IMG/VR virus record: IMGVR_UViG_3300035698_018616
Length of the DNA: 29,934 nt
Source of the DNA: a virus
Reading direction: 5' to 3' (one strand)
Shown piece by piece: positions 2,258-22,519 of this stretch (within the stretch, counting starts at the first letter, position 1; each line of letters opens with the position of its first letter). A program made the position numbers and the translations under genes. Below the pieces are notes generated by a model. The model did no database searches and had not been told where the DNA came from. It saw only the letters and a list, made by a program, of their open reading frames with translations.

Positions 2258-3052
2258 ATGACAATAGGATTATATAATGCGGATAAGAGACTGTTAAAGT
2301 CCTTATCCGCAAAAATCAACATTATAGATCTTGATACTTCATTTCCTAAACTGAAGGGTTTGTTCATCGATTGGATTGACACTACAAACAGAAAGAAACC
2401 ATCCAAGAAATTTGCTCACCAAGCCGCTCTAATAAGTTACTATTCCAAAAAGAATATACCTATAATGATATATGATAGGCATATGTGTATAACCCAAAAG
2501 GAATTGAAGTGGCTGAAAAAGTTCTATGCTCACCTATTTGAACCTGCATTGAATAATAGAAAGGATTTTGAGTACTTACCTTACTGTATAGAACTGGATG
2601 ATAACAAACTATTGGATTATGAAGGTGGTAGAGAATATCATTTAGGTCACATAGGACTACAAACTGATTCCTTTGAGAAGTATTATGTTGGTCATCGAGA
2701 AAAGTTTCCGGATTCCAACTTTCATTACAAGGTTGAGAATTGGGAAGAAATACAATATATGGTAGCTATTGATAGTAAACATAATTACAGTATAGGTTAT
2801 TTGAATCAAAATGTTATTGATGCTTTGGAACATGGATGTATGGTGCTATGTCCTATAGAGCATAAATATTACAGTAATATGTTTTATGGTAATGTTGTAG
2901 GTGATATTAATTTTATTGATTACTGGATGAATATGAACCATGATATGAGGATTGCTTCTATAATGGGTGTATATGAGAATGTAAAAGAGAGATATCCAGA
3001 GTTTACCATAGGGCATTGGACTAAGAAAATAATAGAGGTGTTTGATAAATGA
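2258..3052 (+). CDS. divergent GT-B fold glycosyltransferase-like protein (possibly T4 beta-glucosyltransferase-like)
   Basis: C-terminal MVAIDSKHNYSIGYLNQNVIDALEHGCMVLCP resembles the GT-B donor-binding helix-strand (E/D-A-x-x-x-G-x-x-V-L); YHLGHIG matches the first strand of the C-domain. Confidence 0.45.
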   Translation: MTIGLYNADKRLLKSLSAKINIIDLDTSFPKLKGLFIDWIDTTNRKKPSKKFAHQAALISYYSKKNIPIMIYDRHMCITQKELKWLKKFYAHLFEPALNNRKDFEYLPYCIELDDNKLLDYEGGREYHLGHIGLQTDSFEKYYVGHREKFPDSNFHYKVENWEEIQYMVAIDSKHNYSIGYLNQNVIDALEHGCMVLCPIEHKYYSNMFYGNVVGDINFIDYWMNMNHDMRIASIMGVYENVKERYPEFTIGHWTKKIIEVFDK

Positions 3053-3372
3053 CCGATGTTGTAATGAGAAGACTTTTAGATACTGCTTCTGAGAGAATTG
3101 AAGTATTAAAAAGAATGACTGATGTACAATGTGAACATGGTAATTGGAATCATGATCCATATATGCACGGCATGGCGAATGCGATGATCTATGCTGTGGC
3201 TATAATGTGTAATTCTGAACCCGAATATCTTAATGCTCCTGATGTATGGTTAAAGGATGTTGATAGTGATGATGTAGAACCTATTGAGTCTCGTGAGGAA
3301 GTAGTGAGAGAAAGGGATTATAGAGGAATAAGTAATGAATGGATAAATATTCTGTTTGGAGAAGAATTATGA
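3049..3372 (+). CDS. hypothetical protein (107 aa) ending in a degenerate copy of the shared C-terminal tag
   Basis: ATGA overlaps at both ends; ends ...SNEWINILFGEEL*. Confidence 0.75.
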   Translation: MTDVVMRRLLDTASERIEVLKRMTDVQCEHGNWNHDPYMHGMANAMIYAVAIMCNSEPEYLNAPDVWLKDVDSDDVEPIESREEVVRERDYRGISNEWINILFGEEL

Positions 3373-3542
3373 ATGATATATCCCGTTATGAAAGATTGAC
3401 AAGGGATTTTTTAGCACCTTATCAAAAAGAATTATTAGAAGCTATGGCTCAAGGGATGATAATGACACCATCTTTCCTCGATATTCTTAAAAAATCGGAT
3501 GAATGGGAAGAAGTTAGTAAGTTATTTAAGGAAGAGCTATGA
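3369..3542 (+). CDS. 57-aa mini-protein with shared C-terminal tag
   Basis: Start moved to the ATG at 3369 (ATGA overlap, GGAGAAG RBS); ends KKSDEWEEVSKLFKEEL*. Confidence 0.75.
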   Translation: MNDISRYERLTRDFLAPYQKELLEAMAQGMIMTPSFLDILKKSDEWEEVSKLFKEEL

Positions 3543-3676
3543 AGACACTAAGAGGTAGAACCTATAAGGAGTATATATCTGATTGCTTTTATTGGAGTAT
3601 TTGGTGGACAGCCTTTCCATTAAGAAGACTATTTGAAGAGATTGAGTATTATGCTAAAGGAAAATTGAAGATATGA
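3539..3676 (+). CDS. 45-aa aromatic-rich small protein (not in ORF track)
   Basis: MKTLRGRTYKEYISDCFYWSIWWTAFPLRRLFEEIEYYAKGKLKI*; ATGA overlaps with both neighbours. Confidence 0.6.
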   Translation: MKTLRGRTYKEYISDCFYWSIWWTAFPLRRLFEEIEYYAKGKLKI

Positions 3677-4401
3677 AGATAATAAGACAAGATAAAGATT
3701 CAAAGGTGTTAGTGGTCACTCCTTTACTTCCAAATCATAAAATATCAAAGGATACCAAGAAAACTATTAAGAGGAATAAGATACCATTTACTTGGATTAC
3801 CTCCGAAGGTCATAACAACATCCCTGTCAATGTAGAATTAGGTTTAAATGACTATAGAAAGAAGTTCCCCAAGTACCTACCTTCCTATATACTACCTTTA
3901 GACCGTGATATCATCTTAGGTCGTAATATGATTGATAGAATGGTAGCTGTATTGGATATCTTGCCTGATGAAATTGCTTATACATATGCTAACTTTGAAT
4001 TTAAGGGTGCTATTGATAAGAAGTTTCCAGCGAAACCCTTTGATATTAATGCTCTTGTATTCAATAACTATATATCCTCTAATTCCCTTATAAAGATTAA
4101 GTACTTAGATGCTATAGGAGGATTTATAAAAGATAAAAAATATAAAAGGTTACTGGATTGGTGTTTGTGGCTAAAGTTCTATCAGCACGGTTACATAGGC
4201 ATGCCAACTCCGAATGCCAATTTTATAGCATTATCAACATCTAATGATATAAGTGCAGGTACTCAGGAAGACTTTGAACTAAAAAGGAAAAGAGTTTTAG
4301 AGGATTTCGTTAAGCCTATAATGGAGCAAGCAAAAAAAGAGGACTCTTCTCATAGTATTGATGATGTAGAGCCCCCTTTAGATAATGTGCTTACTTTTTA
4401 G
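3673..4401 (+). CDS. GT2 (GT-A fold) glycosyltransferase
   Basis: VLVVTPL first strand, DxD in ILPLDRD, YISSNSLIK, GGF...LLDWCLWLKF. Confidence 0.8.
   Translation: MKIIRQDKDSKVLVVTPLLPNHKISKDTKKTIKRNKIPFTWITSEGHNNIPVNVELGLNDYRKKFPKYLPSYILPLDRDIILGRNMIDRMVAVLDILPDEIAYTYANFEFKGAIDKKFPAKPFDINALVFNNYISSNSLIKIKYLDAIGGFIKDKKYKRLLDWCLWLKFYQHGYIGMPTPNANFIALSTSNDISAGTQEDFELKRKRVLEDFVKPIMEQAKKEDSSHSIDDVEPPLDNVLTF
4332..4379 (-). terminator. intrinsic terminator closing the long minus-strand cluster
   Basis: Minus-strand GGGGGCUCU...AGAGUCCUC stem (2 G-U pairs) with inner UCAU/AUGA pairing, followed by U7, just past the stop at 4391; it lies within the 3' end of the convergent GT2 gene. Confidence 0.6.
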
Positions 4402-4762
4402 ATTCTTTATCGTTAACCTTAGTAATAATATCTATAAGGTCTTTTTTTAAGACATCTTTCCATTCTTTACCTGTCTTAGATATTTGTTGTATAGTGTCAT
4501 ATGTTACATTATTAGCAACATACATACCGATCATGGTATCTCTTGATGGTATTAAAACAGCCACGAAAATAAATACAATACTTACTATCAATAGCAACCG
4601 TTTCTTTCCTTTTGACATTAATTCTTCTAATTCTAAAGATTTATATAGGAAGGAAAACCCATAAATAAAAATAGAAATTATACCTACCATCAAAAAAAGT
4701 GACATTATTGGATTTACTACTCCTAACAAATAAATCAACCAAGGGCTTACAATCGGGTCCAT
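4391..4762 (-). CDS. phage membrane protein, about 2 TM helices
   Basis: Two hydrophobic stretches; PIVSPWLIYL and LIPSRDTM pattern resembles common phage hypothetical membrane proteins; RBS GGGAGG. Confidence 0.75.
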   Translation of the reverse strand: MDPIVSPWLIYLLGVVNPIMSLFLMVGIISIFIYGFSFLYKSLELEELMSKGKKRLLLIVSIVFIFVAVLIPSRDTMIGMYVANNVTYDTIQQISKTGKEWKDVLKKDLIDIITKVNDKESKK

Positions 4763-4782
4763 AACATTTTACCTCCCTTTCT

Positions 4783-4920
4783 TTAATTAACAGTCCATAC
4801 CTCCGCTGGCAATTCTCCAGTATCCCAAACCGCTTCAGTGTCCCAGATTTCTTCCTCTCTTAATTCAGCTATCTGCTCTTCCGAATCACCATTAAAATCA
4901 AACAAATCATCAAATGACAT
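4783..4920 (-). CDS. 45-aa highly acidic peptide (not in ORF track)
   Basis: MSFDDLFDFNGDSEEQIAELREEEIWDTEAVWDTGELPAEVWTVN*; RBS AAGGAGGT; fills the gap between two minus-strand genes. Confidence 0.7.
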   Translation of the reverse strand: MSFDDLFDFNGDSEEQIAELREEEIWDTEAVWDTGELPAEVWTVN

Positions 4921-4924
4921 AACT

Positions 4925-5080
4925 CTACCTCCTTTCTACTTCGCCTTCGGTTATAAAATATACTTTGTTCCTATCATCCACATATATAGGAATCGGTATA
5001 GGTATGATACAACATCCACTATATGACAAACTAATCATTATCAAGATGATACTCAATATTCTCTTTAGCTTTGAAATCAT
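4925..5080 (-). CDS. putative small lipoprotein (51 aa)
   Basis: Start at MISKLKR after GAGGAG; basic n-region, hydrophobic h-region and lipobox-like SYSG-C, then a Pro-rich IPIPIP segment. Confidence 0.55.
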   Translation of the reverse strand: MISKLKRILSIILIMISLSYSGCCIIPIPIPIYVDDRNKVYFITEGEVERR

Positions 5081-5825
5081 ATATCTCCTCTGCAAGTTTT
5101 GTATCCACACTAACTTCTTGTACCCCTATTGTAGCACTATTTTTATCAAATGTAAAGCTATTTTCTTTTCCAATCATAGTAGCAATTTCCAGAACACTTG
5201 TTAATCTACCACTTCCTATTGGAACAGGTTGATTGGTAACTCTATCAGAATTCAATGCTAACCAAATTGCTTCACATATATCGTTTACATGGATAAAATC
5301 TCTTTTCTGTTTACCATCACCATTAATCACTAACTTCTCTCCTTTAGCTTTAGCATTTATGAATAGTGGTATGACAGAAGGTTTTTCCTCCCAATACTTA
5401 CCACCGTATACATTAGCAAATCTTAGTATGTGGTTTTTACCTTTGTAGAGGTTCAATCTTTTAGCTTCGATTTCACCCATGAATTTCGTCATTCCATAGA
5501 GTGATTCATATGGTGTTGGTGCAGCGCCAGAGGAAGCAAACACTAATGGTGTATCATATTTTTCTGCTTGCTGCATTATATAGAAAGTTGATGTTACATT
5601 AGTAGTTACAGCATCTTCTGGATCATCTCTACATTCACCTACACCAGCTACAGCAGCAAGATGTACCACAGCATCGTATCTCCATACATCATTTATGTCT
5701 AATACCCAATTATCATCCTTCTTGTCTATTATAGTATAGCCACAATCCTTTTCTTTTAAGTAATCAACCAGATTGCTACCTATATAACCCTTTCCACCTG
5801 TAATGAGAATTTCTTTTTTATACAT
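5031..5825 (-). CDS. NAD-dependent epimerase/dehydratase (extended SDR)
   Basis: ILITGGKGYIGS, VHLAA, FASS, YGMTK, RFANVYG, DGKQKRDFIHVND. Confidence 0.92.
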   Translation of the reverse strand: MYKKEILITGGKGYIGSNLVDYLKEKDCGYTIIDKKDDNWVLDINDVWRYDAVVHLAAVAGVGECRDDPEDAVTTNVTSTFYIMQQAEKYDTPLVFASSGAAPTPYESLYGMTKFMGEIEAKRLNLYKGKNHILRFANVYGGKYWEEKPSVIPLFINAKAKGEKLVINGDGKQKRDFIHVNDICEAIWLALNSDRVTNQPVPIGSGRLTSVLEIATMIGKENSFTFDKNSATIGVQEVSVDTKLAEEIYDFKAKENIEYHLDND

Positions 5826-6068
5826 AACATATTCCTCCTTTTAATTTTTGTGTCCGGCTAGGGGGGGTAAAAACCATAAGAATTATCACTTACTTTCACA
5901 ATTCTTTAATCTTTACAATACTTTCCTTCATTCTCACCCTTTCTATTACTATCATTACTTTTCTTTGATTTTAGTACTTTTCAAAAGCGGCGGTATTCTC
6001 TCCTTCTAATGTTTTCAACGCTTGAGTACTGGTTCGACCCCTATAAAGCGTAACAATTTTTTCACACA

Positions 6069-6443
6069 CTACTTCCTCCAATTATAAATTATATCAACCT
6101 CATCTTCATCGGGTTCTTCATATGTAGTTCCTTTCCACAACTTACCACCCTCTACATAAATTAAAATAGATTCTTCAAATAAACTTCTTGCCTCATTCCT
6201 CCATTCTCTTTTAGGGGAAATTAGAGATATAATGACAATGAAACCTTGTTTCTCTATTAATGATGCAAGTTTAGCAATAGTTAGAATATTTTTATGTCTT
6301 CCATCATCTGTAAAGCCAAAATCAATCATCCCTCTAAATTCATCACCATCTAATATTACAGAAGGTACGGATAATTCTTTTTGTAATCTATAAGCTAAGG
6401 TAGTCTTACCAGCATTTGCTTTCCCTGTTATCCAAAATACCAT
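6069..6443 (-). CDS. cysC: adenylylsulfate (APS) kinase-like protein, unusually short
   Basis: VFWITGKANAGKTT P-loop, LDGDEFR, GFTDDGRHKNI, SLISP, YEEP. Confidence 0.75.
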   Translation of the reverse strand: MVFWITGKANAGKTTLAYRLQKELSVPSVILDGDEFRGMIDFGFTDDGRHKNILTIAKLASLIEKQGFIVIISLISPKREWRNEARSLFEESILIYVEGGKLWKGTTYEEPDEDEVDIIYNWRK

Positions 6444-6447
6444 ATCT

Positions 6448-6921
6448 TTAAAAACTCCCTCTATATAATTTTACTGGATTACCTACTACTCTTATACCAT
6501 CAGGCACATCCTTAGTAACAACACTACCAGCCCCTATGAATGATTCTGCTCCTATAGTACATGGACTTATAATGGTAGCATTTGCTCCTATCATAGCACC
6601 CTTCTTGACCAATATCTTTTCTAATTTACTGTTACCATAAGGATTAGGACTTCTGACATTAGTGAATACAGCACTCGGTCCTATAAAAACATAATCTTCT
6701 AATGTTACACCCTCAAAGAGATGAACATTATTTTGTATCCTACATCCCTTACCTATTATGACATTAGGGCCTATCACACAATTTTGACCTATGTTACATA
6801 AATCACCTATAATGGTTCCTTCCATTATGTGACAGAAATGCCAAATTTTAGTATCTTTACCAATTATGACCCCATCATCCACATAGGAGGATTCATGTAC
6901 AAATGCTATTTTCTGATCCAA
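6448..6921 (-). CDS. wbpD: WbpD/WlbB-like sugar N-acetyltransferase (left-handed beta-helix)
   Basis: FVHESSYVDDGVIIGKDTKIWHFCHI, IQNNV, FIGPSAVFTNV, hexapeptide repeats, VGNP. Confidence 0.88.
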   Translation of the reverse strand: MDQKIAFVHESSYVDDGVIIGKDTKIWHFCHIMEGTIIGDLCNIGQNCVIGPNVIIGKGCRIQNNVHLFEGVTLEDYVFIGPSAVFTNVRSPNPYGNSKLEKILVKKGAMIGANATIISPCTIGAESFIGAGSVVTKDVPDGIRVVGNPVKLYRGSF

Positions 6922-7458
6922 AATCTACTTCTCCATCCACTATTATGAAACACATCATGTTTTAATGGTGTAAAAACTTTCATGGTTTCTTCTATATCTT
7001 CATAATTGATTTCCAAACCCCAATCATGACACCCTATTATATCACCACTATTTAAATAAGGGGCATAGATGTTCACCTCTCCCTTCTTATTTCCATTATC
7101 ACAATATAGAAATTTCTTCCTTTTGTCCTTGCATAGTTTAATGATATCGGCATCAGGTTTACTCAAGATATCCATAACTTTAAACATAACTTTACCTTTC
7201 AATTGTTTCCTTACATTATGAAAATACCTATCATCTATATCATAAGCTCTTATTTCAGCATTAGGACAGGTATCATTTAAAAACAGAGTCAAACCTCCGT
7301 ATTGGGAGCCAAACTCTATAATTAGTTCCGGGTTAAGATCTGTTAAAATTTCAGCTATTGTATTCATTGCTTGCCATTCATGACGAAGCCTGATACCCTT
7401 ATACCCTTATACCCTTATAATCAAACCCACCCATTTCCACCGGTTTAAATTTTTTCAT
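6906..7458 (-). pseudogene. CmcI/cephalosporin-hydroxylase-like SAM methyltransferase, frameshifted near its 5' end (6906-7367 remains open)
   Basis: PELIIEFGSQYGGLTLFL and GDIIGCHD motifs; MKKFKPVEMGGFDYKGI from the ATG at 7458 joins RLRHEWQAMNTIAEIL in frame if the 8-bp repeat has a single copy. Confidence 0.7.
7393..7419. repeat. 8-bp tandem repeat (ATACCCTT) x3 plus ATA
   Basis: ataccctt ataccctt ataccctt ata read directly. Confidence 0.95.
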
Positions 7459-8326
7459 ATTTCTTTCTCATCCTCCATACCAATTCTATAGAAGGTTTAG
7501 CATCTTCTATACCATACCCTCCTCCATTTAGTATATCACGATACACCTCAGTATGTAAATCAGCAAAAACCTTATCCATACGAATAAGTTCCTCATTTAC
7601 AGTAATTTCTCTAAATGCTCCTTCATGTCCTTCTGGTAGTAATCCACTATCAGTTGACAATAAAAAGTTAGCCTTGGCTCTATCCAGATAAACTGTTCCT
7701 TCTACTGTATGCTTGTCCATAGTATTGATTGCAAAACTCAATTGCTTTCCAAATATCCATATAAGCATATCAAATAGATGTATACCTATGTTAGTAAGTA
7801 TACCACCAGACTTTTTATTATTACCCTTCCAGGACCTATCATACCATGGACCTCTTGGAGTAATATAAGTGATGTTTACTCTACACATACCAGAGGGTAG
7901 GTTTTCCTTGAGTTTCAATAATTCCGGATGATACCTTAGTTGAAGTATATTGTATATCTTTTTACCTGTTTCTTTTTCTATCACCTGTAATTGTTCTATA
8001 TTTTTAGAAAAAAGGACTAAAGGTTTCTCACATATAACATCGGCACCTACCCTCATTCCTAATCTACAATGGGCATCATGTAAGTAATTAGGAGAACATA
8101 TACTTAAATAGTCTATGCCCTTACCTTCCCTTTTCAGCAATTCTAAATGACGGTCAAACCTTTCTATTTCAGTAAAAAACTCACATTCAGGAAAATAAGA
8201 ATCAAGTATACCCACTGAATCATGTGTATCCACAGCAGCTACAAGATTACCACCTATTTCTTTAATTGCTTTCATATGTCTTGGTGCTACATAACCGGCG
8301 GCACCCATCAATGCAAAATCAGTCAT
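7445..8326 (-). CDS. wbpB: WbpB/WlbA-like UDP-GlcNAcA 3-dehydrogenase (Gfo/Idh/MocA)
   Basis: FALMGAAGYVAPRHMKAIKE, DSVGILDSYFP, SICSPNYLHDAH, CEKPL, SGGILTNIGIHLFD. Confidence 0.92.
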   Translation of the reverse strand: MTDFALMGAAGYVAPRHMKAIKEIGGNLVAAVDTHDSVGILDSYFPECEFFTEIERFDRHLELLKREGKGIDYLSICSPNYLHDAHCRLGMRVGADVICEKPLVLFSKNIEQLQVIEKETGKKIYNILQLRYHPELLKLKENLPSGMCRVNITYITPRGPWYDRSWKGNNKKSGGILTNIGIHLFDMLIWIFGKQLSFAINTMDKHTVEGTVYLDRAKANFLLSTDSGLLPEGHEGAFREITVNEELIRMDKVFADLHTEVYRDILNGGGYGIEDAKPSIELVWRMRKKYEKI

Positions 8327-9065
8327 TTTCTCTCCTTTCTAACAACCATGCTTCAGTTGCTATTAATTGTAATTTCATTCTAATATCTTCTACAGTTTTT
8401 GGTTCAAAATCCTTATAATAGTCCCTAATTTCCTTTTCCCATAACTCCTTATAGCTTACAAAAGCCGGTGGAGAACTAACCAAAAAGTCAGGAATAATTT
8501 TATCATATGCATCTACTAACATCTTTTTCTTAGGTGGACTATAAAAAGGATAAGTTTCTTCAAAATCCAATCTCACAAAAGGAATTTCTAAATCCATTTC
8601 TAAATGATTATGAATGGTTTTATACGTGGATGTTACATACATTAATTGGATGGCCCATGCTTCTATATATCCTCTATTAGAGTATCCACCAAAATGTTCA
8701 TCCGATCCTTCACCTATATAAACAGTTTCCCTTCCATCCTTTTTTGCTTGTTTTGCTAACCAATAGGGCCAAATATTATATCTTGGTTGATTAAAAAATT
8801 TCATTACTTTATAAAGTCCCTCTACAAAATTATCAATTTCAACCTCTTTATGAATTGTACCATAATATTCAGATACTTGCTTAGCTTTTTTATGTTCATC
8901 ACCTTTAATTCCAAACTTAGCAGTATATGTATAGATAGGTTCTTTACATTTTTCTGATAAATGATGTAATACTATTGTTGAATCTACACCACCACTTATA
9001 TATACAGCAGGCTTTGGTTTTACAATTACCTTTTCTCCTATAAGCTCCCCAATTCTTTCCTTCAT
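8319..9065 (-). CDS. asparagine-synthetase-like ATP pyrophosphatase/amidoligase (synthetase domain only)
   Basis: PP-loop YISGGVDST and GEGSDEHFGGY; no N-terminal Ntn glutaminase domain. Confidence 0.82.
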   Translation of the reverse strand: MKERIGELIGEKVIVKPKPAVYISGGVDSTIVLHHLSEKCKEPIYTYTAKFGIKGDEHKKAKQVSEYYGTIHKEVEIDNFVEGLYKVMKFFNQPRYNIWPYWLAKQAKKDGRETVYIGEGSDEHFGGYSNRGYIEAWAIQLMYVTSTYKTIHNHLEMDLEIPFVRLDFEETYPFYSPPKKKMLVDAYDKIIPDFLVSSPPAFVSYKELWEKEIRDYYKDFEPKTVEDIRMKLQLIATEAWLLERREND

Positions 9066-9949
9066 ATTTTTCTACCTGATATAAACCATCCTGAATGCTC
9101 CCATCCTTCGGGTTGTAATACCTTAATATCATCTTTTATGTTATTATTCCCAAACCATGTAAGAATTTCCTCGAGTGTATGAAAAGTTACGATACTTGGA
9201 TGATACCAATCAACATTTACTAATGTAGATCCATCCAATCCCATATTATCATTATAGTAACACTTTAAGAAATGATTATAAATAAATTCTTGCATACCAT
9301 ATGTACCTTTCTTTATACCCAGCAAAGGGATATCTTCTTCTATAACAATACCCTCTTTAATTTTTTGTAATGATTTACCTAACTTTGATATGGATTCTGA
9401 AAAATCTAGACATTCATCAAAAGAAAGAAGTGTAGTATTGTTTCTTATATGTTCATCAGCTAAACTTCTTATCAAAGGTTTTTTACAATATATATAAACA
9501 CCAATCAATCCATTAGGTTTCAAGTGATAACAAAGTTTAGAAAAATATTTCTCAGTGTTTCCTGTATGATGTAATACCCCATTAGAAAAAATTATATCAA
9601 AAAATTCCTTATCAAACGGTAAACTACCAAGGTCTGCTTTAAGAACTATAACATTATTCATATGTTTAGTTCTTTCTTTAGCTATTTCTACACTATCAGA
9701 GATGTCTACGGCATATCTTGTAACATTTTCATTAATATTAAACAACTCCTCTGCCCATCCTACCCCACATCCAGCATCTAAACAATTCATTCCATCCTTA
9801 AAAATATCATATAAATCCTTCTCTTCATGAATACCAAATAAAGGAAGAAACTGTTCTAACACATCAGATTTAGAAGTTCCATAATTTTTACCTTCCTCAG
9901 TTAACCATTTCTCTCCGAAACTCTTACTTGTTTGTTCCTTATTTTTCAT
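9062..9949 (-). CDS. class I SAM-dependent methyltransferase
   Basis: CLDAGCGVG, AVDIS, LPF..EFFDIIFSNGVLHHT, LKPNG. Confidence 0.92.
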   Translation of the reverse strand: MKNKEQTSKSFGEKWLTEEGKNYGTSKSDVLEQFLPLFGIHEEKDLYDIFKDGMNCLDAGCGVGWAEELFNINENVTRYAVDISDSVEIAKERTKHMNNVIVLKADLGSLPFDKEFFDIIFSNGVLHHTGNTEKYFSKLCYHLKPNGLIGVYIYCKKPLIRSLADEHIRNNTTLLSFDECLDFSESISKLGKSLQKIKEGIVIEEDIPLLGIKKGTYGMQEFIYNHFLKCYYNDNMGLDGSTLVNVDWYHPSIVTFHTLEEILTWFGNNNIKDDIKVLQPEGWEHSGWFISGRKI

Positions 9950-12137: not shown

Positions 12138-12148
12138 CAGTCCTCCTT

Positions 12149-13988: not shown

Positions 13989-13992
13989 TATC

Positions 13993-15051
13993 TTATATAC
14001 TCCTTAAACACATATAAACCTCATCAATTTCCCTTTCTGTTAATTCATAGTATAATGGTAAAGCCAATGACCTGTTATACAAATAATATGAAATAGGACA
14101 ATTATTAGATGAATTATATACTGGTTGCGTATGAGAAGCGTATGTTCCTATTTGACAACCTATATCTTCCCCTCTTAATTTATTCATTAACTTATTTCTA
14201 TCAATACACTCATCAACTGTGGTTACATAACTTTGATATACATGATTACTATTTAAATATGGCTGTTCTATATAAGATATCTCTTTTAGTCTTTCATCCC
14301 ATAAGTTTGCTAAGTACCTTTTTTTAGAAGTAACCTTATCTATACTTTTTAGTTGAGTGACACCTACAGATGCAGTGATATCACTCATTTTATAATTATA
14401 TCCTAAATCATCAAAGATTAGACGACCATCTATTGAGGTGGTTCCAAAGGTTGATAATTTTCTTATTTTATCTGATATGGGATCACTATCAGTAATTGCC
14501 ATACCTCCTTCACCTGTGACTAAATTCTTTCTAGCATGAAATGAAAAACAAGCAATGTCACCTGATAATCTAAATTCAGAACTAAATGCACAAGCAGCAT
14601 CTTCAATAACAAATAAATTATATTTCCTAGCTATCTCACATATACTCTCCATATCGGCTAATTGACCAAATAAATGTACTGGAATAATAGCCTTTGTTTT
14701 ATCAGTAATTCTCTCCTCAATTAAATTAGGATTCATATTGTAGGTTTGAGGATCGACATCTATAAATACAGGTTTTGCTCCACAATATAATACTGAATGT
14801 CCTGTAGCTGGAAATGTATAATCAGCAACTAAAACCTCATCTCCTTTACCAACCCCTAAAGATAGTAACGCTAAATGTAATGCAGCAGTACAATTTGAAA
14901 GGGCTACTGCATTATTAACATTAAGAAGGTTGGAAACTTTATTCTCAAATTCTCTAACCTTTGGTCCATTAGAGACCCAGCCTGATTCTAATACTTTTGA
15001 AATTTCATCTATTTCTGTGCAATCAAAGTACGGTTTTGCTAAAGGAATCAT
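13993..15051 (-). CDS. DegT/DnrJ/EryC1/StrS PLP-dependent sugar aminotransferase
   Basis: SNCTAALHLAL, IPVHLFG, IEDAACA, FSFHARKNLVTGEGG, LGYNYKMSD; start at MIPLAKP. Confidence 0.94.
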   Translation of the reverse strand: MIPLAKPYFDCTEIDEISKVLESGWVSNGPKVREFENKVSNLLNVNNAVALSNCTAALHLALLSLGVGKGDEVLVADYTFPATGHSVLYCGAKPVFIDVDPQTYNMNPNLIEERITDKTKAIIPVHLFGQLADMESICEIARKYNLFVIEDAACAFSSEFRLSGDIACFSFHARKNLVTGEGGMAITDSDPISDKIRKLSTFGTTSIDGRLIFDDLGYNYKMSDITASVGVTQLKSIDKVTSKKRYLANLWDERLKEISYIEQPYLNSNHVYQSYVTTVDECIDRNKLMNKLRGEDIGCQIGTYASHTQPVYNSSNNCPISYYLYNRSLALPLYYELTEREIDEVYMCLRSI

Positions 15052-16051
15052 TTTTTTGTTTTTTATCCTCCAATACATTTTCTATGACTTCTATCATTAG
15101 TTCTAACTTATTATTAATACTGAAATTTTCCCTTGAGAATATCATTCCGTTTCTTCTAATATCATTGTAGTCATTAGGATTTTTAAGTACCATATTCACT
15201 TGTTTAAAAACATTTGCCTCAGTAATAGGTATATAATGAACATTGGGTTTAAATCCTAAATTAGTTAAATCTTTCGTGGTATCTGTGAGTAGTAATGAAC
15301 CAGCTGCGGTAATTTCAAACATCTTGGTGAGTGTGCTATTGAAAAATGGTGAAGGACCTAAACAACAAAAATATTTATTAAGCATTTTAGCATAACCATC
15401 AAACCATGCACTTTCTTTTACAATATTACCTTCAGCTTGTTCCATATTACGATATATATGTAATCTTAATGGGTATGCTTCCCCTACAGCTCCAGTAAAA
15501 AGACATTTCATTACAGGATTTTCATTAAACGGTAAATTAACATATCGTTCATGTGGTCCAAAAAAACTTGGTGACCATATCATTTGATCTTTATATTCAG
15601 GATATATTTCACCAAGTGCATCATACATACTTGTTATTGTTACATCTGACCTATTAAGAGCTTTACGAAACCATTCCTTTTTTTTATTTTCTACTGTTAT
15701 TTGATGTTCCCAATTACAATAATCATCACTATGTATATCCGATGATACACCCACAATCTTAATATTTTTAGGTGTATTTATTACACTTTCCCATAGTAAT
15801 TTTATAATATTACGTTTTGGAAATCCTTGTATTATGATAACATCAAAGTCTTTTAATTCGTCTACATTTATATCAAATCTAAAATCTATATCAAATCCAA
15901 AATAATCTGATAATTGTTTATATAACAAACTACGACCATCAACAGCTCCTTCACCACTAGATTTTATATGTTCACCTTCATTTTTTTCATATGGGGATAT
16001 TCCATGTCCCGCTAAAATTATTCCTTTGGCATTACCTTTATATCTTTCCAT
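15023..16051 (-). CDS. GT-B glycosyltransferase (CgeB/Glyco_trans_1_2-like)
   Basis: CLFTGAV..YPLR, TKMFEITAAGSLLLTD, GFKPNVHYI, IRRNG. Confidence 0.8.
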   Translation of the reverse strand: MERYKGNAKGIILAGHGISPYEKNEGEHIKSSGEGAVDGRSLLYKQLSDYFGFDIDFRFDINVDELKDFDVIIIQGFPKRNIIKLLWESVINTPKNIKIVGVSSDIHSDDYCNWEHQITVENKKKEWFRKALNRSDVTITSMYDALGEIYPEYKDQMIWSPSFFGPHERYVNLPFNENPVMKCLFTGAVGEAYPLRLHIYRNMEQAEGNIVKESAWFDGYAKMLNKYFCCLGPSPFFNSTLTKMFEITAAGSLLLTDTTKDLTNLGFKPNVHYIPITEANVFKQVNMVLKNPNDYNDIRRNGMIFSRENFSINNKLELMIEVIENVLEDKKQKNDSFSKTVL

Positions 16052-16242
16052 TATTTTATAATCTCCTTGTATAATTCCATATCCAATTTGTTAATATGTT
16101 CTATTTCTTTTCTTATATCATTACTTACAAGTTTCTTTTTGCCTCTCCTTAGAATTTTATAGGTTTCTGGTAAACCCAATTCAAATAATTTATTGAATTC
16201 CAAAAAACATTTATGGTAATTTTCTAATGTAATAAAAATTTC
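16051..16242 (-). pseudogene. C-terminal remnant of a sulfotransferase (Sulfotransfer_2/Gal-3-O-like)
   Basis: 63-codon open frame with no plausible 5' ATG, ending IRKEIEHINKLDMELYKEIIK* (N-x-x-D-x-E-L-Y); TAATG-coupled to the next gene. Confidence 0.5.
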
Positions 16243-16248
16243 TCATTT

Positions 16249-16290
16249 TCTTTTATCTTCTTTCTCCTATTTTCTTTCTCCTATTTTCTT
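16249..16290. repeat. 14-bp tandem repeat, 2 perfect copies plus 1 degenerate copy
   Basis: Minus strand AAGAAAATAGGAGA AAGAAAATAGGAGA AAGAAGATAAAAGA, spanning the acetyltransferase stop codon. Confidence 0.85.
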
Positions 16291-16662
16291 TGCTGGATTA
16301 CCCGCCCATATTTCAAATGCTGGGATATTTTTAGTTATTACACTACAAGCACCTATGATAGCACCTGCACCTATTGTTTCTACACCTATAATTAGAGACC
16401 TTACACCTATAAATACATCTCTTTCTATATGGAGTTCAACAGGTATAATTTTTTGAATTTTCCCTCTTCTACCCCTTGAATGGTTCCATTTATGTTGATG
16501 GGTAAGTATCATAGTTTCAGCACCTACTTCAGCGTATTCAGCTATATAAACATTACTTGCAAGGTCTATTCTAACATCTCTATGTATATGACATTTCTCA
16601 TCAGCAAATAATTCACCTTTAAATAATTTTTTGTGTGCATATGTAAGTGTAGGTATACCCAT
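16267..16662 (-). CDS. left-handed beta-helix O/N-acyltransferase
   Basis: ILTHQH, IERDVFIG, IGAGAIIGACSVITKNIP, WAGNPAKKI. Confidence 0.88.
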   Translation of the reverse strand: MGIPTLTYAHKKLFKGELFADEKCHIHRDVRIDLASNVYIAEYAEVGAETMILTHQHKWNHSRGRRGKIQKIIPVELHIERDVFIGVRSLIIGVETIGAGAIIGACSVITKNIPAFEIWAGNPAKKIGERK

Positions 16663-17297
16663 TATACTATACTCCTAATTGTTTGAAATACCTCAGCATA
16701 CTTCACTCCTATTTCACTACCCCTTATACTTGCTATAAGTTTAACAGTATTAGTTAAATCAGGTCTTTTAGCTAATTGACTCTTATAACATTCTATGGCT
16801 TCTATCTTCTTCTCTATATGTTCCTTTGTTAATGGTATATATGTGGTCATATTTGATTTACCCATACTATTCCATATATTCTCATATCCAAGTATAGTAG
16901 AGTGACGAAAGGCTCTTATACCTTCCTCACGTATAACCTTATGGTCTTGGTGTATATCATTACTATTAGGGAGTAATACTATATCAGGTTGTACACTTAA
17001 TTTAGATATTATCATAGCATCTAATATTTCTTGTCTATGAGAAGGAAAGGTTCTAACCTGAAACATTACTTTATATTGTATAGTACATGTACCAAGTTTT
17101 TCTTCTGCTTGTCTTTCTTCTATTCTGGTAGAAGTTATATCAAACTCCTCTGGTATTGATTCCTCTGCAAAAGAGAATATCATATTAAATACTTCATGGC
17201 CTTCATCTATAAACCTTGCTACAGTTTCACCACAACTTATCTCCATATCATCAGAATGTGGGGATAGAACTAATATTCTTTTAGAATTTTCCGTCAT
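16662..17297 (-). CDS. PIG-L/LmbE family de-N-acetylase
   Basis: LVLSPHSDD, DIHQDH, KKIEAIECYKSQ, YAEVF. Confidence 0.92.
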   Translation of the reverse strand: MTENSKRILVLSPHSDDMEISCGETVARFIDEGHEVFNMIFSFAEESIPEEFDITSTRIEERQAEEKLGTCTIQYKVMFQVRTFPSHRQEILDAMIISKLSVQPDIVLLPNSNDIHQDHKVIREEGIRAFRHSTILGYENIWNSMGKSNMTTYIPLTKEHIEKKIEAIECYKSQLAKRPDLTNTVKLIASIRGSEIGVKYAEVFQTIRSIV

Positions 17298-18120
17298 ATT
17301 GTTTTCCTTTTTCTGTTAATTGTAAACTGAGAGGGTCATTGGGGCTTACTTCCATAAAATTTGACATACGACCCATACCTTGAGGACCAATACCTTTACC
17401 GGCCCATGTATTAACAATTCTTCCTATATCTAATCCTATACCACCACAATCTTTCGTCCATATAGAATATCCTTTAGCTAAAAATCCACCGGCTATTAAG
17501 AATATATCTATATCATCAATCATCAATTTTATCTGATTTTTTACATCCTGATAAAGGTTATAGTGCCATATACCGCATGGTGGTATATTAAGTTTATCAT
17601 CTCTTGGGGATTCTTCTGGTATACTTATAACTTCACATCCTATTATATCACCTAATTCAGGAAAAGAAGTAATTAAGCATATCTTTTTATCCCTAATGAT
17701 GTTCCATAAGTTATATTCTCCTTCTATGAACAACAAATAACCTATATCAGGATTGACGAAATTGGTATTGGTTATACCTATCTCTTTATGCACTCTTTCC
17801 CATTCTCTGAATACACTTGTTGGTTTTATATTCTTATCAAAAAACTGTCCATCAGTAAACCAAGCACCAAGACAAGCAACATAATCAGACCTATTACAAG
17901 AATCTATCAACATCTTAACAACTTCCTTACCCTTTTCCGGTGGTATACCTTGCTCTATATTTTTTCGTTTAGACACGGTACCTATCATCATAGAGGAAAA
18001 TTCAGCATTACCCATCCTCATAATTGAAAAGGATTTATTATCATCTAAACATTCTTTAATATGAGTGTATATATGTGAAACTTTACATACTGTTGTACCT
18101 TCCATGTAATTATCTTCCAT
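17281..18120 (-). CDS. GT-D fold-like glycosyltransferase
   Basis: SFSIMRMGNAE (variant of S-x-x-R-x-G-D-G-E), DIFLIAGGFLAK, GGIGLDIG. Confidence 0.7.
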   Translation of the reverse strand: MEDNYMEGTTVCKVSHIYTHIKECLDDNKSFSIMRMGNAEFSSMMIGTVSKRKNIEQGIPPEKGKEVVKMLIDSCNRSDYVACLGAWFTDGQFFDKNIKPTSVFREWERVHKEIGITNTNFVNPDIGYLLFIEGEYNLWNIIRDKKICLITSFPELGDIIGCEVISIPEESPRDDKLNIPPCGIWHYNLYQDVKNQIKLMIDDIDIFLIAGGFLAKGYSIWTKDCGGIGLDIGRIVNTWAGKGIGPQGMGRMSNFMEVSPNDPLSLQLTEKGKQYDGKF

Positions 18121-18123
18121 TTA

Positions 18124-19263
18124 TTACCTCCATTTTATATCTGGCATTATAACTTTAGGATTTATGTTACTCCTATAAGGTTCAAGGTCCTTTAACATCC
18201 CTTCTATTTCTCTTTCCATATCAGTTGTAGGTTCATAGCCGAGATCGAATAGTTTTTGATGGTCTGGTTTATAGTAGTGGTTCTCCACTTCTGTCCTTGG
18301 ATTTGGTATATTGATGATTTCAGTACTATATCCAAGTTCCTGTGCTTTGCTCCATACCATATAAGCCAAGTCTTTCAATGTGTACACTTCCTCGAATTGA
18401 TTTAGAACTCTATATTCTCCTTCTTCTGGTGGATTATCTATAGCTAAGTTAAGACATTGCATTGAATCCTTTAGAGGTAGAAATCCTCTCTTTTGCCCAC
18501 CTGTACCATAGAGAGTAATAGGTTCTCTCGCTATTGCTTGGGAACAGAATCTATTGATGACAGTACCGAAGCATTGGTCATAATCAAAACGAGTATGTAG
18601 TCTTTCATCATTTTCCATTTCAGGTATTTTTGTTCCATATACTACACCTTGCATTATATCAGTTGATTTTAAATTCCATGTCTTACAGGCGAATTGAATA
18701 TTAGTGCTATCATGGACTTTAGTAGCATGATAAAAACTTCCTGGTTGTTTAGGAAATGGTAACATGGACTTCCTACCTTTATATTCTACTTCTATGGGGC
18801 CTTCAGGTATAGCAATGTTTGGAGTGCCATATTCTCCAAGAGTTCCGAGTTTTACCAAATGAGCATTCGGACAATGTTCTTTCATAGCATAGAGTATATT
18901 CAAAGTCCCTATTACATTATTATTGTGAGTATATACAGCCTTGGCATTATTCATCATGGAATAAGGTGCAGAAGGCATTTCAGCTAAATGGACTATAGTA
19001 TCTGGTTGGAAGTTTTTGATATCTCTAGAAATACTAGAATAATTCATAACATTTCCAAAAGTAAAGGTGCCACCAAATTTTCTAATAAGACCTTCTCTAT
19101 CTATCATACTTTTAATGGGTAATAAAGATTCTCCACCCACCTCTCTTACCCATCTCCTACGATCACCAGTATCAATACAGAATACTTCATATCCCTTAGA
19201 CAAAAGATAAAGTGATAGAGACCATCCTAAATATCCATCAGCACCTAAAATACATACACGCAT
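18124..19263 (-). CDS. sqdB: UDP-sulfoquinovose synthase (SqdB/SQD1/Agl3 family)
   Basis: GADGYLGW, HLAEMPSAPYSM, LVKLGTLGEYGTPN, PKQPGSFYHATKVHDS, QGVVYG, RFDYD..FGTVINRFC. Confidence 0.92.
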   Translation of the reverse strand: MRVCILGADGYLGWSLSLYLLSKGYEVFCIDTGDRRRWVREVGGESLLPIKSMIDREGLIRKFGGTFTFGNVMNYSSISRDIKNFQPDTIVHLAEMPSAPYSMMNNAKAVYTHNNNVIGTLNILYAMKEHCPNAHLVKLGTLGEYGTPNIAIPEGPIEVEYKGRKSMLPFPKQPGSFYHATKVHDSTNIQFACKTWNLKSTDIMQGVVYGTKIPEMENDERLHTRFDYDQCFGTVINRFCSQAIAREPITLYGTGGQKRGFLPLKDSMQCLNLAIDNPPEEGEYRVLNQFEEVYTLKDLAYMVWSKAQELGYSTEIINIPNPRTEVENHYYKPDHQKLFDLGYEPTTDMEREIEGMLKDLEPYRSNINPKVIMPDIKWR

Positions 19264-19454
19264 TACAACTCCTCCTTAAACAATTTATCTATATCATCCC
19301 AATCGGATTTTTTCCTATACCACATTTCAAATTCTGGTTTATTCTGCTCTTCCATCCACCAATCACATAAATATTCTTGTTTCCATTTATCTCCAAATAC
19401 AGGTACCATTTCTGATAAATCAACTTCTCTAATATAAACCCCCGGTGCTTTCAT
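19263..19454 (-). CDS. 63-aa mini-protein with tail-sheath-like N-terminal motif and shared C-terminal tag
   Basis: MKAPGVYIREVDLS ... RKKSDWDDIDKLFKEEL*; coupled to both neighbours. Confidence 0.75.
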   Translation of the reverse strand: MKAPGVYIREVDLSEMVPVFGDKWKQEYLCDWWMEEQNKPEFEMWYRKKSDWDDIDKLFKEEL

Positions 19455-19615
19455 CACAACTCCCCTTTTTGTACTGGCATAGTTATACCAGTCGCTAAGA
19501 TTTCATGTACTTCTGTAGGCTCAACCCAGAAAGTGGTATTATCACTGAATGTTATACTGACCTTCAGGGGGGAAATGGAATATTCTTTTATAGTCTTCCC
19601 TTTTAGATCATTCAT
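19454..19615 (-). CDS. 53-aa small protein (not in ORF track)
   Basis: MNDLKGKTIKEYSISPLKVSITFSDNTTFWVEPTEVHEILATGITMPVQKGEL*; ATGA and TGATG overlaps; AAGGAG RBS. Confidence 0.65.
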   Translation of the reverse strand: MNDLKGKTIKEYSISPLKVSITFSDNTTFWVEPTEVHEILATGITMPVQKGEL

Positions 19616-19848
19616 AATTTCTCCTTGAACATTTTATCCACTTCATCCCAATCTGAATTCCTCTTTTTTAGAGTTTTTTGACCCCATATAATAGCTCCAG
19701 GTTCTATAGATATTTCATTATTAGATGCTGGCTGAACCCACGTTATATCACCAGTATCACCAGTACCATCAGCATTTGTTATTGTCCAAGTAGTTGCTGC
19801 CGTTCCAGTATCATTTCCTGTCACGTATGCCGTTCCATCATATTCCAT
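19612..19848 (-). CDS. 78-aa Thr/Gly/Asp-rich mini-protein with shared C-terminal tag
   Basis: MEYDGTAYVTGNDTGTAATTWTITNADGTGDTGD... KKRNSDWDEVDKMFKEKL*; TAATG coupling at 19848. Confidence 0.75.
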   Translation of the reverse strand: MEYDGTAYVTGNDTGTAATTWTITNADGTGDTGDITWVQPASNNEISIEPGAIIWGQKTLKKRNSDWDEVDKMFKEKL

Positions 19849-20666
19849 TAAGTAACTCTCCACATATCAATCATAAAATCATCATTCCTTGGAGGGTTCC
19901 AATATACTTTTCCTGGTTTATATCCATTTAACCTCACAGATCCCCCTTCACCATGTTTTTGCCTTCCTAAATGCTTCATATAGTAACCATTATTTAATTG
20001 CATATATTCTTCCCTGGTTTTATTTCCACCAAATTCCTTTAAACAGCATAATCCATATCCAAGAAAGTAAGTTCCTGTATTCTCCATTACCCATTCAGGT
20101 CCTCTAACAAGGTCACCTTTCAGTATATCATTCATTCTCCAGTGTATATTCTTATCAAAGCTCTTCCAAAAAGGTTTAATATAGGATGCTCTCCATAAGG
20201 CGGGTGTAAATGCCCAATGAGGGTCAGTAACTAAAGGTACACCATCCCTTACTACTTGCTTCTTAGTAAAATAATTCCCTCTCTTCCATGATATGCGTCT
20301 CTTATGAAAAGCTATCTGGTTGATTCCAGGATGTTTGTCCATCAAGTCTACTAATGGGTTCAAATCTAAAGGTTTTATTAGTTCATAATCATCCTCAACA
20401 TTCAGTATATAAGGAGTATTGGTTTGTTCTAATAACCAAGTTAGTGATGGTCCTTGTCCTATAGGTGTTTGGTTAACTTTGGATACATCATATATACCAA
20501 CTTCATTTATATAATCAGTACATTGTTTTGACCATTCTTCATGTAAAGAATCTTCATGTATCAGCCATCGAAATCCTCCATCATATTTCAAGTTCTTCTG
20601 TAGTGCTTCTGTAGTAGTTTTAAGATAATCAGGTCTGGAAGCACTTGTCCTCATTATATCAATCAT
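19848..20666 (-). CDS. GT-A (GT2-like) glycosyltransferase, paralogue of 25744-26496
   Basis: RTSASRPDYL, IHED, PYILNVEDD, WAFTPALWR; start at MIDIMRT by comparison with the paralogue. Confidence 0.8.
   Translation of the reverse strand: MIDIMRTSASRPDYLKTTTEALQKNLKYDGGFRWLIHEDSLHEEWSKQCTDYINEVGIYDVSKVNQTPIGQGPSLTWLLEQTNTPYILNVEDDYELIKPLDLNPLVDLMDKHPGINQIAFHKRRISWKRGNYFTKKQVVRDGVPLVTDPHWAFTPALWRASYIKPFWKSFDKNIHWRMNDILKGDLVRGPEWVMENTGTYFLGYGLCCLKEFGGNKTREEYMQLNNGYYMKHLGRQKHGEGGSVRLNGYKPGKVYWNPPRNDDFMIDMWRVT
20203..20258. repeat. 56-bp perfect direct repeat, copy 1 (copy 2 at 26030-26085)
   Basis: ggtgtaaatgcccaatgagggtcagtaactaaaggtacaccatcccttactacttg is identical at both sites. Confidence 0.92.
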
Positions 20667-21711
20667 TATAGAACACCTGATCACTTGTTCTCATAAACCT
20701 TCTTCCTATAGGTATCTTATCCTGATAGGCCCTTACCTCATCATCGGTTATCTCATCAAGCATCATTTGAATAGCTAAATAAGGCTCACAAAAACCTTTA
20801 TCATATATGTAAGTACTTAGTCTTGGATTAACTTCTATCACTTTATCCCCTATGAACTGAACACCGTTACAATACTTCAATCCTAATTCCTTTGTTATCT
20901 TCTTACACATCTCAACATGGTAGGGAGAATCTACCAATACACCTTTAGAGCTTAGACCGTACTTGGATTCCTCTCTTATCTTTACTGTAACTAATAGAGC
21001 ATCACTATCTTCATTTGCTAATACCATGCAGTCGTATTCGGTCCCTTCTACAAATTCACACAGAAGTAGATCGGGTAATTGATTTTCGTTCTCAAATAGT
21101 TTTATGAAGGTATCCATACTTATATATGGCTTGAATGGCCTCTCTTTAAACAATATATCAATGTCATTCCTATTTTTATCTATTATACGAAACCCTCTTG
21201 AACCCTTACCTATATATGGTTTAAAGCATATCTTTTTACTTGGATATCCTAAATGGAAGGCTCCAGCTTCAAAATCATCAAGGTCATAAGGTGTAAAATA
21301 TTTGGGTATAGGTATATCAGCTTTCTTTAATTTTTCATACAACAAAAGTTTATCTTCAACATCTTTGATAACCTTGTAATCATTAACCATTAACCATTAA
21401 CTTACATCCATTTACAGATTTTATTTGTGGTTTCATAGCTGCTATCTTTGCTATTTCTAAACTTGATTCAGGTATTACAATATCAGGTTTCTCATTAAAT
21501 ATCACATCAAACAATTCTAATTTAAAATAACCATCTGATGCAGGAGGAACTTGATGGAACTTATCAACCATAAATCTACCACTTGCATTTTCATCCATAT
21601 CTGTACCTATAATTTCAATATCACGCTCTTTAAAATAGCCTTGAGTTGTTTGAATAGAGGTATAAAACCTGGTGTTCCACATGCAGTTATTAGTATTTTA
21701 AGATTCTTCAT
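20659..21711 (-). pseudogene. ATP-grasp ligase interrupted by two frameshifts
   Basis: Three frames join: MKNLKILITACGTPG... (21711), KERDIEIIGTDMD...VPPASD...KPDIVIP, and DKLLLY...KPYIGKGSRGFRII...EFVEGTEY...IEVNPR; breaks at 21632-21635 and at the 7-bp repeat 21381-21401. Confidence 0.82.
21381..21401. repeat. 7-bp tandem repeat (CATTAAC) x3
   Basis: cattaac cattaac cattaac read directly. Confidence 0.95.
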
Positions 21712-22192
21712 TGTTAATTAATTCCTCGATTCTTTTCCTTGATTCAGGATGCATTTTCATTTTACTACCATTCTTGTCATACCATTTTTTAACATTCGGA
21801 GTTCCTTGTGCTCTACCCGCACCACACCAATCACAATACATTTCTTTTATATATATCTCCGGTATCTTGAATATCTTAGTGCCACCTCCATCTTCTGGAA
21901 GTATCCACCACTGCCAATGATGCTTATTTCTTTTCTGATGAAGTAACCAAGCGTAGTCGAATTTACTATCACCTGTATCGGTTGGTTTATAATAACCCGT
22001 TTCATCTCTACCTTTATTGATATCGCTTTTCATTGTACCATAGAAGTAGTTCGCATAAGGGAACAACTCACTTGGGAGAAATTTACTCCAATCATGTATG
22101 ATACCTCTCCATACTATACCTTGTTTACAGCAGGCAAGGAAAACAAACCACTTATGCCTCAATAAGTAAGATAAATATTTAAGATGCTTCAT
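21698..22192 (-). CDS. DUF5662-like HD-type phage protein
   Basis: RHKWFV, GIIHDWSKFLPSE, AWLLHQKRNKHHWQWW, EMYCDWCGAGR. Confidence 0.75.
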   Translation of the reverse strand: MKHLKYLSYLLRHKWFVFLACCKQGIVWRGIIHDWSKFLPSELFPYANYFYGTMKSDINKGRDETGYYKPTDTGDSKFDYAWLLHQKRNKHHWQWWILPEDGGGTKIFKIPEIYIKEMYCDWCGAGRAQGTPNVKKWYDKNGSKMKMHPESRKRIEELINNEES

Positions 22193-22346
22193 TGCCCTCT
22201 CTTACTAGCTTTATACCGATATAATCAGCAGGCGTTAGTCCATTTTTATGAAACACATGGCTAATTTTATATGATTGAAGCCATTGTTTTTCAAATTCCG
22301 TTTCTGGTAATATCATTAAGCTATTGTTTATAATTTCAGTTTTCAT
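22179..22346 (-). CDS. 55-aa small protein (not in ORF track)
   Basis: MKTEIINNSLMILPETEFEKQWLQSYKISHVFHKNGLTPADYIGIKLVREGNEAS*; ATGA overlap; GAGG RBS. Confidence 0.65.
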   Translation of the reverse strand: MKTEIINNSLMILPETEFEKQWLQSYKISHVFHKNGLTPADYIGIKLVREGNEAS

Positions 22347-22519
22347 AGCTCTTCCTCAAATAATTTATTAATATCTCCCCACTCATCTTTTGGAGACCAT
22401 ACTATAACTCTATGAAGATAATCCAATAATATTTTTACATTCTTCCTATCTAATCGAGGATTCCAAATATCTTGTAATATTCTTCTTCTTACATCTGTTA
22501 AAGGAACCGTATCCTCCAT
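22343..22519 (-). CDS. 58-aa mini-protein with shared C-terminal tag (not in ORF track)
   Basis: MEDTVPLTDVRRRILQDIWNPRLDRKNVKILLDYLHRVIVWSPKDEWGDINKLFEEEL*; starts immediately after the upstream TGA. Confidence 0.72.
   Translation of the reverse strand: MEDTVPLTDVRRRILQDIWNPRLDRKNVKILLDYLHRVIVWSPKDEWGDINKLFEEEL

Follow-up and report, generated by a model that had tools for sequence, protein, structure and literature searches.

A candidate lineage-specific C-terminal docking tail on small proteins of a phage with T4-related replication genes

The C-terminal tip of phage gp32 and of bacterial single-stranded DNA-binding protein (SSB), an acidic tail with hydrophobic residues at its end, is read by many replication and repair proteins, and encapsulin and T4 capsid-targeting peptides send unrelated cargo to a single protein shell. 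The clamp-binding epitopes of phage T4 are PIP-box-like, and the polymerase tail of phage RB69 is of the same kind. In T4, these epitopes are common hydrophobic-acidic peptides at the C-termini of gp43, gp55 and gp33, preceded by divergent flexible linkers, and the three tails are nearly identical and interchangeable (PMC2988020). As read from NC_000866, they end in SLDFLFG in gp43, SLDFLYEAND in gp55 and TLDFLL in gp33. Here, we describe a C-terminal tag, W-x-[DE]-[IV]-x-K-[LM]-F-x-E-[EK]-L-stop, on small open reading frames (ORFs) in a 29,934-nucleotide stretch of the IMG/VR virus record IMGVR_UViG_3300035698_018616. This stretch (the window) spans 7153-37086 of a viral contig that has 58,652 bp and 32% G+C. 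It is possible that the tag is a lineage-specific docking peptide for one common partner, a reading to which we give a rough probability of 0.4.

An earlier note, made from the sequence alone, had proposed that five ORFs in the window share this tag. All five were found at the positions that it gave, with the ends that it described (lengths in amino acids, aa):

ORF A, 3049..3372, plus strand: 107 aa, with a weak tag, W-I-N-I-L-F-G-E-E-L-stop; its residues 61-79 resemble the N-terminus of ORF C.
ORF B, 3369..3542, plus strand: 57 aa, with a strict tag (codons and stop at 3489-3542); its ATG overlaps the stop of ORF A, and an alternative start at 3339 gives 67 aa.
ORF C, 19263..19454, minus strand: 63 aa, with a strict tag (codons and stop at 19263-19316) that is kept in four orthologues.
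ORF D, 19612..19848, minus strand: 78 aa, with a strict tag (codons and stop at 19612-19665).
ORF E, 22343..22519, minus strand: 58 aa, with a strict tag (codons and stop at 22343-22396); orthologues occur in L006 and P0011.

In a six-frame translation of the 58.6-kb contig, the strict pattern matched four times (B, C, D and E), compared with about 2e-7 matches expected from residue frequencies. The shorter core [LM]F.E[EK]L occurred five times, each time immediately before a stop codon, where 0.03 occurrences were expected. Both counts place the motif far above background frequency, a matter that the earlier note had left to be settled. The conserved block also proved longer than that note had it, being extended upstream by [KR][KR]-x-S-D.

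Public metagenome contigs, the longest of 193,676 bp, contain the same phage. A 144-kb metagenome contig was read to position 109,884, and ORF ends were counted in 80.9 kb of this phage (147 ORFs). Of these ORFs, 13, all of them 58-155 aa long, ended in a looser tail, [LM]F-x(2-4)-stop, when 2.0 were expected (Poisson P ~2e-7). Outside the window the looser tails take the form h-x-x-[LM]-F-x(2-4)-stop. Just upstream of the window, the gp47-like and gp46-like genes flank three of them, two directly follow gp32 and end in L-P-D-[DN]-L-F-E-L-x, and four or five precede the ligase gene in a group of small ORFs, two of these ending in D-L-D-E-L-F plus four residues. With the looser forms there are about fifteen carriers in total. 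Every tag ends 2-4 residues past [LM]F and is preceded by a polar or low-complexity segment. The tagged genes had been described as lying on both strands among glycosyltransferase genes; they do occupy both strands, but the glycan cluster holds only C, D and E. A and B come after a UvsX-like recombinase gene (window 29-1189), and the looser carriers are found near gp47/gp46, gp32 and the ligase gene.

The tag is confined to one lineage. A search of 1.84 billion representative proteins with the tail profile detected only eight carriers, all of them 58-90 aa long, tagged at their very C-terminal end and belonging to this phage lineage. A pattern scan of IMG/VR gave no match to the strict tag and two chance matches to the looser core, neither at an ORF end. 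In the closest IMG/VR relative (G001, whose clamp is 71% identical), tail variants are present on three homologues of the D-L-D-E-L-F proteins, and a more distant relative (clamp 61% identical) has still looser forms. Pfam and PHROGs searches of the tagged proteins returned nothing informative, and a PDB sequence search with the tail profile returned nothing.

Selection on the tail could be compared with selection on the rest of the protein. Among the paralogous tags, identity at the three codon positions was 0.66/0.86/0.55, with third positions conserved least. Four orthologues of ORF D came from metagenomes (54-77% identity), and in them the tail is invariant. The ratio of nonsynonymous to synonymous substitution rates (dN/dS) was 0.04 in the 17-residue tail, with a dS of 0.93, and 0.87 in the body, which is rich in Thr, Gly and Asp and evolves near neutrality. 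For ORF C orthologues, the corresponding values were 0.35 (tail) and 0.61 (body). The high tail dS, together with low third-position identity, excludes recent gene conversion or a DNA-level element and agrees with the earlier proposal that conservation is at the protein level. The body of D contains several indels, all in frame, and those in the body of C are likewise in frame, indicating that the tail is always produced. A segment just before the D tag, I-W-G-Q-K-T-L-K-K-R-x-S-D (window 19663-19704, minus strand), recurs nearly exactly near the end of a 163-aa ORF (L012:3406-3897) of an unrelated IMG/VR phage with higher G+C; that ORF has no tag.

Shine-Dalgarno (SD) sequences precede 53% of the genes of this phage, compared with 9% in the background. 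The last codons of B, C, D and E hold AAGGAG or GAGGA and the ATGA or TAATG overlap of the next gene, and thus the terminal tag residues do double as its ribosome-binding site, as had been suggested. The adjoining genes are:

45-aa ORF, 3539..3676, plus strand: the terminal codons of ORF B enclose its SD sequence and ATG (ATGA overlap).
Gene for an NAD-dependent epimerase/dehydratase, 18124..19263, minus strand: the final codons of ORF C contain its SD sequence (AAGGAGG) and ATG.
Untagged 53-aa ORF between D and C, 19454..19615, minus strand: its start overlaps the stop of D; it is conserved in all relatives, with a dN/dS of 0.13-0.22.
55-aa ORF, 22179..22346, minus strand: its start overlaps the stop of ORF E.

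These overlaps raise the question of whether the tag is a by-product of gene organisation, arising from translational coupling or from a recombination junction for small gene cassettes. The presence in relative L006 (6158-6337) of one extra ORF with a tag of the strict type, although lacking the W, between the 53-aa ORF and C would also be consistent with such cassettes. However, 27 of the 32 coupled genes with an SD core within their last 18 nt end in quite different residues, and 8 of the 13 LF tails have no SD coupling and still keep the final aliphatic residue; this was the control for ribosome-site overlap that the earlier note had asked for. Since the 27 other ends carry an SD sequence with different residues, ribosome-site overlap does not explain the motif, and since the final aliphatic residue is kept in uncoupled tails, the end of the tag is not purely a ribosome-site effect. 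In addition, the SD sequence does not cover the W..[IV].K[LM]F part, which needs another explanation, a point already made in the note, and the third-position identity and tail dS given above also speak against a by-product. Selection and coupling data largely refute this possibility, which we consider very improbable; the encoding of SD and start by the last four tag residues is a secondary use.

A shared docking tail on variable payloads, as proposed in the earlier note, would be the most economical reading of the selection pattern. The tag is built as a basic/polar linker, [KR][KR]-x-S-D, and an acidic segment, W-x-[DE]-[IV]-x-K-[LM]-F-x-E-[EK]-L-COOH, which may be amphipathic, with W, I/V, L/M, F and the final L predicted to fall on one face of a helix. 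It would bring small, unrelated, fast-evolving bodies to one partner protein in the infected cell. An AlphaFold2 (AF2) model of ORF C has a helix at residues 52-60 after a low-confidence linker, although the confidence of this model is low (predicted local distance difference test score, pLDDT, 53).

The bodies themselves are diverse. BLAST of 15 tail-stripped carriers found no similarity, which bears out the statement that the N-termini are unrelated, except in two cases: the D-L-D-E-L-F paralogous pair outside the window and a 19-residue segment common to A and the start of C. The latter, A-P-[GD]-V-[YW]-[IL]-x-[ED]-V-D, comprises residues 61-79 of A (window 3229-3285, plus strand) and the first 19 residues of C (19398-19454, minus strand; BLAST E 0.007). 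It is sheath-arm-like, is present in most C orthologues but not in L007 and L010, and was modelled as disordered. It is therefore worth asking whether the tag is the terminal helix of one very diverged family of paralogous small proteins, kept for folding or self-association. The two D-L-D-E-L-F proteins are true paralogues and have three homologues in G001, A and C have a second segment in common, and B, E and the extra protein of L006 are all 57-59 aa and helical-looking. On the other hand, the bodies differ in type: that of D is rich in Thr and Gly, one looser carrier is a MORN-like repeat protein, a relative has a carrier resembling the L7/L12 C-terminal domain, and a weak form of the tag is present on an HD-domain protein. 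Low-complexity linkers separate body and tail (Pro/Gly- or acid-rich in the looser carriers), and a near-neutral body beside an invariant tail would be unusual for a helix of a folded core. Overall, we find a common paralogous origin improbable.

The L7/L12-like carrier (L031:4118-4483, minus strand) is a 121-aa protein with the ribosomal L7/L12 C-terminal domain (Pfam E 2.7e-8) and ends in L-P-D-E-L-F-V-I-E. MORN-like repeat proteins of this phage (L023:12980-13384, L023:16305-16487 and L015:5846-6286) have another C-terminal segment, L-[IV]-K-C-L-K-x-L-L-x-[CF]-L, which is probably common to them through paralogy. Two further tails, those of RNase H (K-L-M-E-L-Y) and the ligase (D-D-L-M-G-I-L), were considered as tags and rejected because all relatives conserve them as the ends of the respective domains.

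The short, fast-evolving and probably early nature of many carriers, the extreme C-terminal position of the tag and the fact that selection keeps the tail of D and not its body would also suit a C-terminal stability signal or degron through which a host or phage protease clears early mini-proteins at a set time. However, the C-terminal degrons known for ClpXP, FtsH and Lon have a non-polar or basic character, which counts against this explanation. The tail, at 12-17 residues, is acidic and has a helical pattern, and no protease gene is linked to the tag. We consider a degron distinctly improbable.

The DNA machinery of the phage is T4-related. It encodes gp47/SbcD-like and gp46/SbcC-like nucleases, the UvsX-like recombinase, a primase, a ribonucleotide reductase, a T4-type RNase H, gp32, an NAD-dependent ligase, Rnl2, RtcB and a seg-like homing endonuclease, as well as gp44-like and gp62-like clamp-loader subunits. 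Cultured phages are all distant: no protein in phage records exceeds 30% identity to the UvsX-like recombinase, and megablast of the window against these records gave no match. Just downstream of the clamp-loader genes is a 252-aa protein (L023 16753-17511) with no sequence match. Its AF2 model, based on 32 homologues, had a pLDDT of 90.6, and the top 50 Foldseek matches were all PCNA or beta clamps. By this predicted fold, the phage has a sliding clamp.

The earlier note had listed a clamp-binding tag among its possibilities. In the strict T4-type version, the tag would occupy the polymerase-tail pocket of this clamp, as gp55 and gp33 tails do, and the mini-proteins would ride on the clamp or compete for it. 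Several observations are consistent with such a role: the tag's [IV]-x-K-[LM]-F matches the spacing of T4 L-D-F-L-F/Y, gp55 also extends four residues past the core, gp55 tails are diverse in distant T4-like phages, and the phage encodes a clamp loader and a clamp. We examined polymerase C-termini in 32 relatives, one of which shares its source sample with two relatives of this phage. They have the form h-x-x-F-F-x(0-4)-stop, with F at the first aromatic position (position 7) in 30 of 32; a few have L-F or I-F in place of F-F, a point in favor of a clamp ligand. In the tags, however, position 7 is always L or M, and the W, K and E-E-L of the tag are not found in polymerase tails. When a position-specific scoring matrix of the polymerase tails was run over the 147 ORFs, an N6/N4 DNA methyltransferase ranked first (14.1 bits, with no null window as high), whereas the tags scored 1-5 bits, the profile being built from relatives' tails and the phage's own polymerase gene not having been read. 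These low scores argue against the usual clamp pocket. The T4 tails, moreover, are nearly identical and interchangeable, and 8-15 competitors for the polymerase site would be costly. Judged from these tails, the F-F tail is the polymerase-type motif of the group and the tags form a separate class. Thus, a strict T4-type clamp ligand is unlikely, although we rate it above the other alternatives.

The methyltransferase (PF01555; L002:1989-2843, minus strand; G000 38988-39842) is encoded just past the end of the window and has the tail I-N-S-F-F-N-stop. In the distant relative G002, a homologue (23% identity) has the ending I-E-Y-F-F. A tail of this kind, common to the polymerases of the group and the methyltransferase of the phage, suggests that the latter is a candidate clamp-tethered enzyme, reminiscent of eukaryotic DNMT1/PCNA. 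The F-F tail of polymerase and methyltransferase would be an addition to T4-type clamp biology.

Other features were noted around the clamp and polymerase. The clamp gene is followed (L023:17586-19521) by genes for a 91-aa protein ending in V-A-G, a 304-aa protein and a ThiF/E1-like protein (PF00899). The ThiF-like gene is kept near the clamp in many relatives, and this neighborhood may be a ubiquitin-like activation module. In relatives G002 and G004 (L080-L082), the family-B DNA polymerase is split into proteins of ~520-590 aa and ~290 aa, with homing-endonuclease-like ORFs between them. A very acidic 45-aa ORF in the window (4783-4920, minus strand) begins with M-S-F-D-D-L-F-D-F, a clamp-peptide-like segment. 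We also looked at two candidates for gp55. Proteins of ~195 aa with LF tails near the clamp in relatives were rejected since they belong to the ThiF family. Cyanophages have gp55 between gp47 and gp46, and ORF G (155 aa) of this phage occupies that position and has a linker and a tail; it was rejected as well, having no PHROG match and no likeness to gp55 by eye.

The gp32 tail was compared in the same way. In gp32 of this phage (L013:4692-5678) and 30 IMG/VR relatives (L166-L215), a variable acidic stretch is followed by a near-invariant tip, [DE][DE]-L-L-[KA]-E-L-x-x-[LM]-stop, which reads EELLKEL-x-N-L in this phage and is akin to the end of T4 gp32, D-L-D-D-L-L-N-D-L (NC_000866). A hidden Markov model (HMM) of 30 gp32 tails, run over the 147 ORFs, detected only gp32 (17.1 bits), and no tagged ORF scored above 0 bits at its C-terminus. 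The phage therefore carries three distinct conserved C-terminal acidic-hydrophobic tails, two on known replication proteins and the third being the tag. As the other two belong to the DNA machinery and many carriers lie by gp47/gp46, UvsX, gp32 and the ligase gene, a replication/recombination hub would, by analogy, be the most likely partner. Candidates are the sliding clamp, through a second site, and a protein that recognizes SSB-like tails.

The placement of C, D and E calls for a different consideration. Window positions 5031-29934 form a large sugar-pathway cluster, and the order ATP-grasp gene, 272-aa protein, D, 53-aa ORF, C and epimerase is kept in relatives. Because of this conserved placement, an address for the virion or for glycosylation, in which the tail docks small proteins on capsid, scaffold or sheath or presents them to glycosyltransferases, stays alive. 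The variable, Thr/Gly/Asp-rich body of D could be a glycan acceptor, and the C start is sheath-arm-like in most orthologues. However, that start is the segment lost in L007 and L010 and modelled as disordered, most carriers lack a Ser/Thr-rich stretch and have replication and recombination genes as neighbors, and nothing links the tag to the particle in the ~110 kb read, which holds no structural gene. A virion or glycosylation address is thus improbable in our view, to about the same degree as a paralogous family.

The note had also considered a follower of the kind found in ribosomally synthesized and post-translationally modified peptides (RiPPs). While C, D and E are near an ATP-grasp gene and glycosyltransferase genes in conserved synteny, A, B and about ten looser carriers are elsewhere, carriers being spread over more than 70 kb. 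The ATP-grasp protein is PylC-like, and no RRE-like domain was seen. These data do not clearly favor a RiPP-like follower. In the window, the ATP-grasp gene is split into ORFs of 243 aa and 99 aa (20659-21390 and 21383-21682, minus strand), and it is a single 347-aa gene in relatives L006 and L007. A frameshift, a pseudogene or an assembly error could account for the split.

Taken together, the direct observations are a motif in excess of chance, placed at the very C-terminal end of small proteins of a single lineage, with purifying selection limited to the tail; docking and the identity of the partner are what we infer from them. Several points weigh against a docking tail read by a replication hub. 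Three of the five carriers in the window (C, D and E) are located in the glycan-synthesis cluster with conserved synteny and not among replication genes. The tags misfit both the polymerase-tail profile and the gp32-tail HMM, so that a clamp hub or a reader of SSB tails would need a separate site. No polymerase, gp55 or gp33 gene of the phage itself was found up to position 109,884 of the 144-kb contig, and the structural model of ORF C is weak at the score given above. Finally, the near-unconstrained body of D would also fit a situation in which the tail, and not the payload, is what matters. A diverged paralogue family, a degron and an organizational by-product are less likely, in that order.

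With these points in mind, we tentatively propose, at somewhat less than even odds, that the tag serves as a postcode of this lineage, a 12-17-residue peptide distinct from the F-F and SSB-type tails that recruits a changing set of 8-15 fast-evolving mini-proteins to one hub. If so, payloads would swap and evolve freely while the address stays fixed, resembling a eukaryotic peptide-motif/hub network of the short linear motif (SLiM) type inside a phage. Small phage ORFs without an assigned function make up the bulk of viral dark matter and offer few handles, and a common tail under selection is one such handle. Identifying a partner for the tag could give a dozen orphan proteins their cellular address in one stroke, and the tag may serve as a portable recruitment peptide once this partner is known.

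Among known systems, the T4 clamp epitopes are similar to the tag in being short hydrophobic-acidic peptides at the extreme C-terminus of otherwise unrelated proteins, behind a variable linker, with a core spacing of h-x-x-[LM]-aromatic. They differ in sequence, and the tag is longer (12-17 residues), has helical periodicity and an invariant W, K and final L, and is carried by 5-15 tiny proteins compared with three carriers in T4, its clamp binding being putative. RiPP leaders and followers likewise place a conserved recognition segment beside a hypervariable one in tiny products, and D is near an ATP-grasp gene; here, however, the scattered carriers do not appear to cluster with a dedicated modifying enzyme, the PylC-like ATP-grasp protein belongs to a sugar pathway and most bodies lack core-peptide character. 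Encapsulin cargo-loading peptides and the T4 capsid-targeting sequence also are single short terminal peptides on unrelated proteins, but they have no sequence likeness to the tag, and the T4 signal is N-terminal and cleaved off. The gp32/SSB tip shares with the tag an acidic stretch followed by L-[LF]-K-E...L-COOH and a conserved final aliphatic residue, and the T4 gp32 end can be set beside the D-L-D-E-L-F-x-x-x-L of two looser carriers. The two differ in hydrophobic register and in arrangement: the SSB tail sits on the hub, whereas the tag sits on many small clients.

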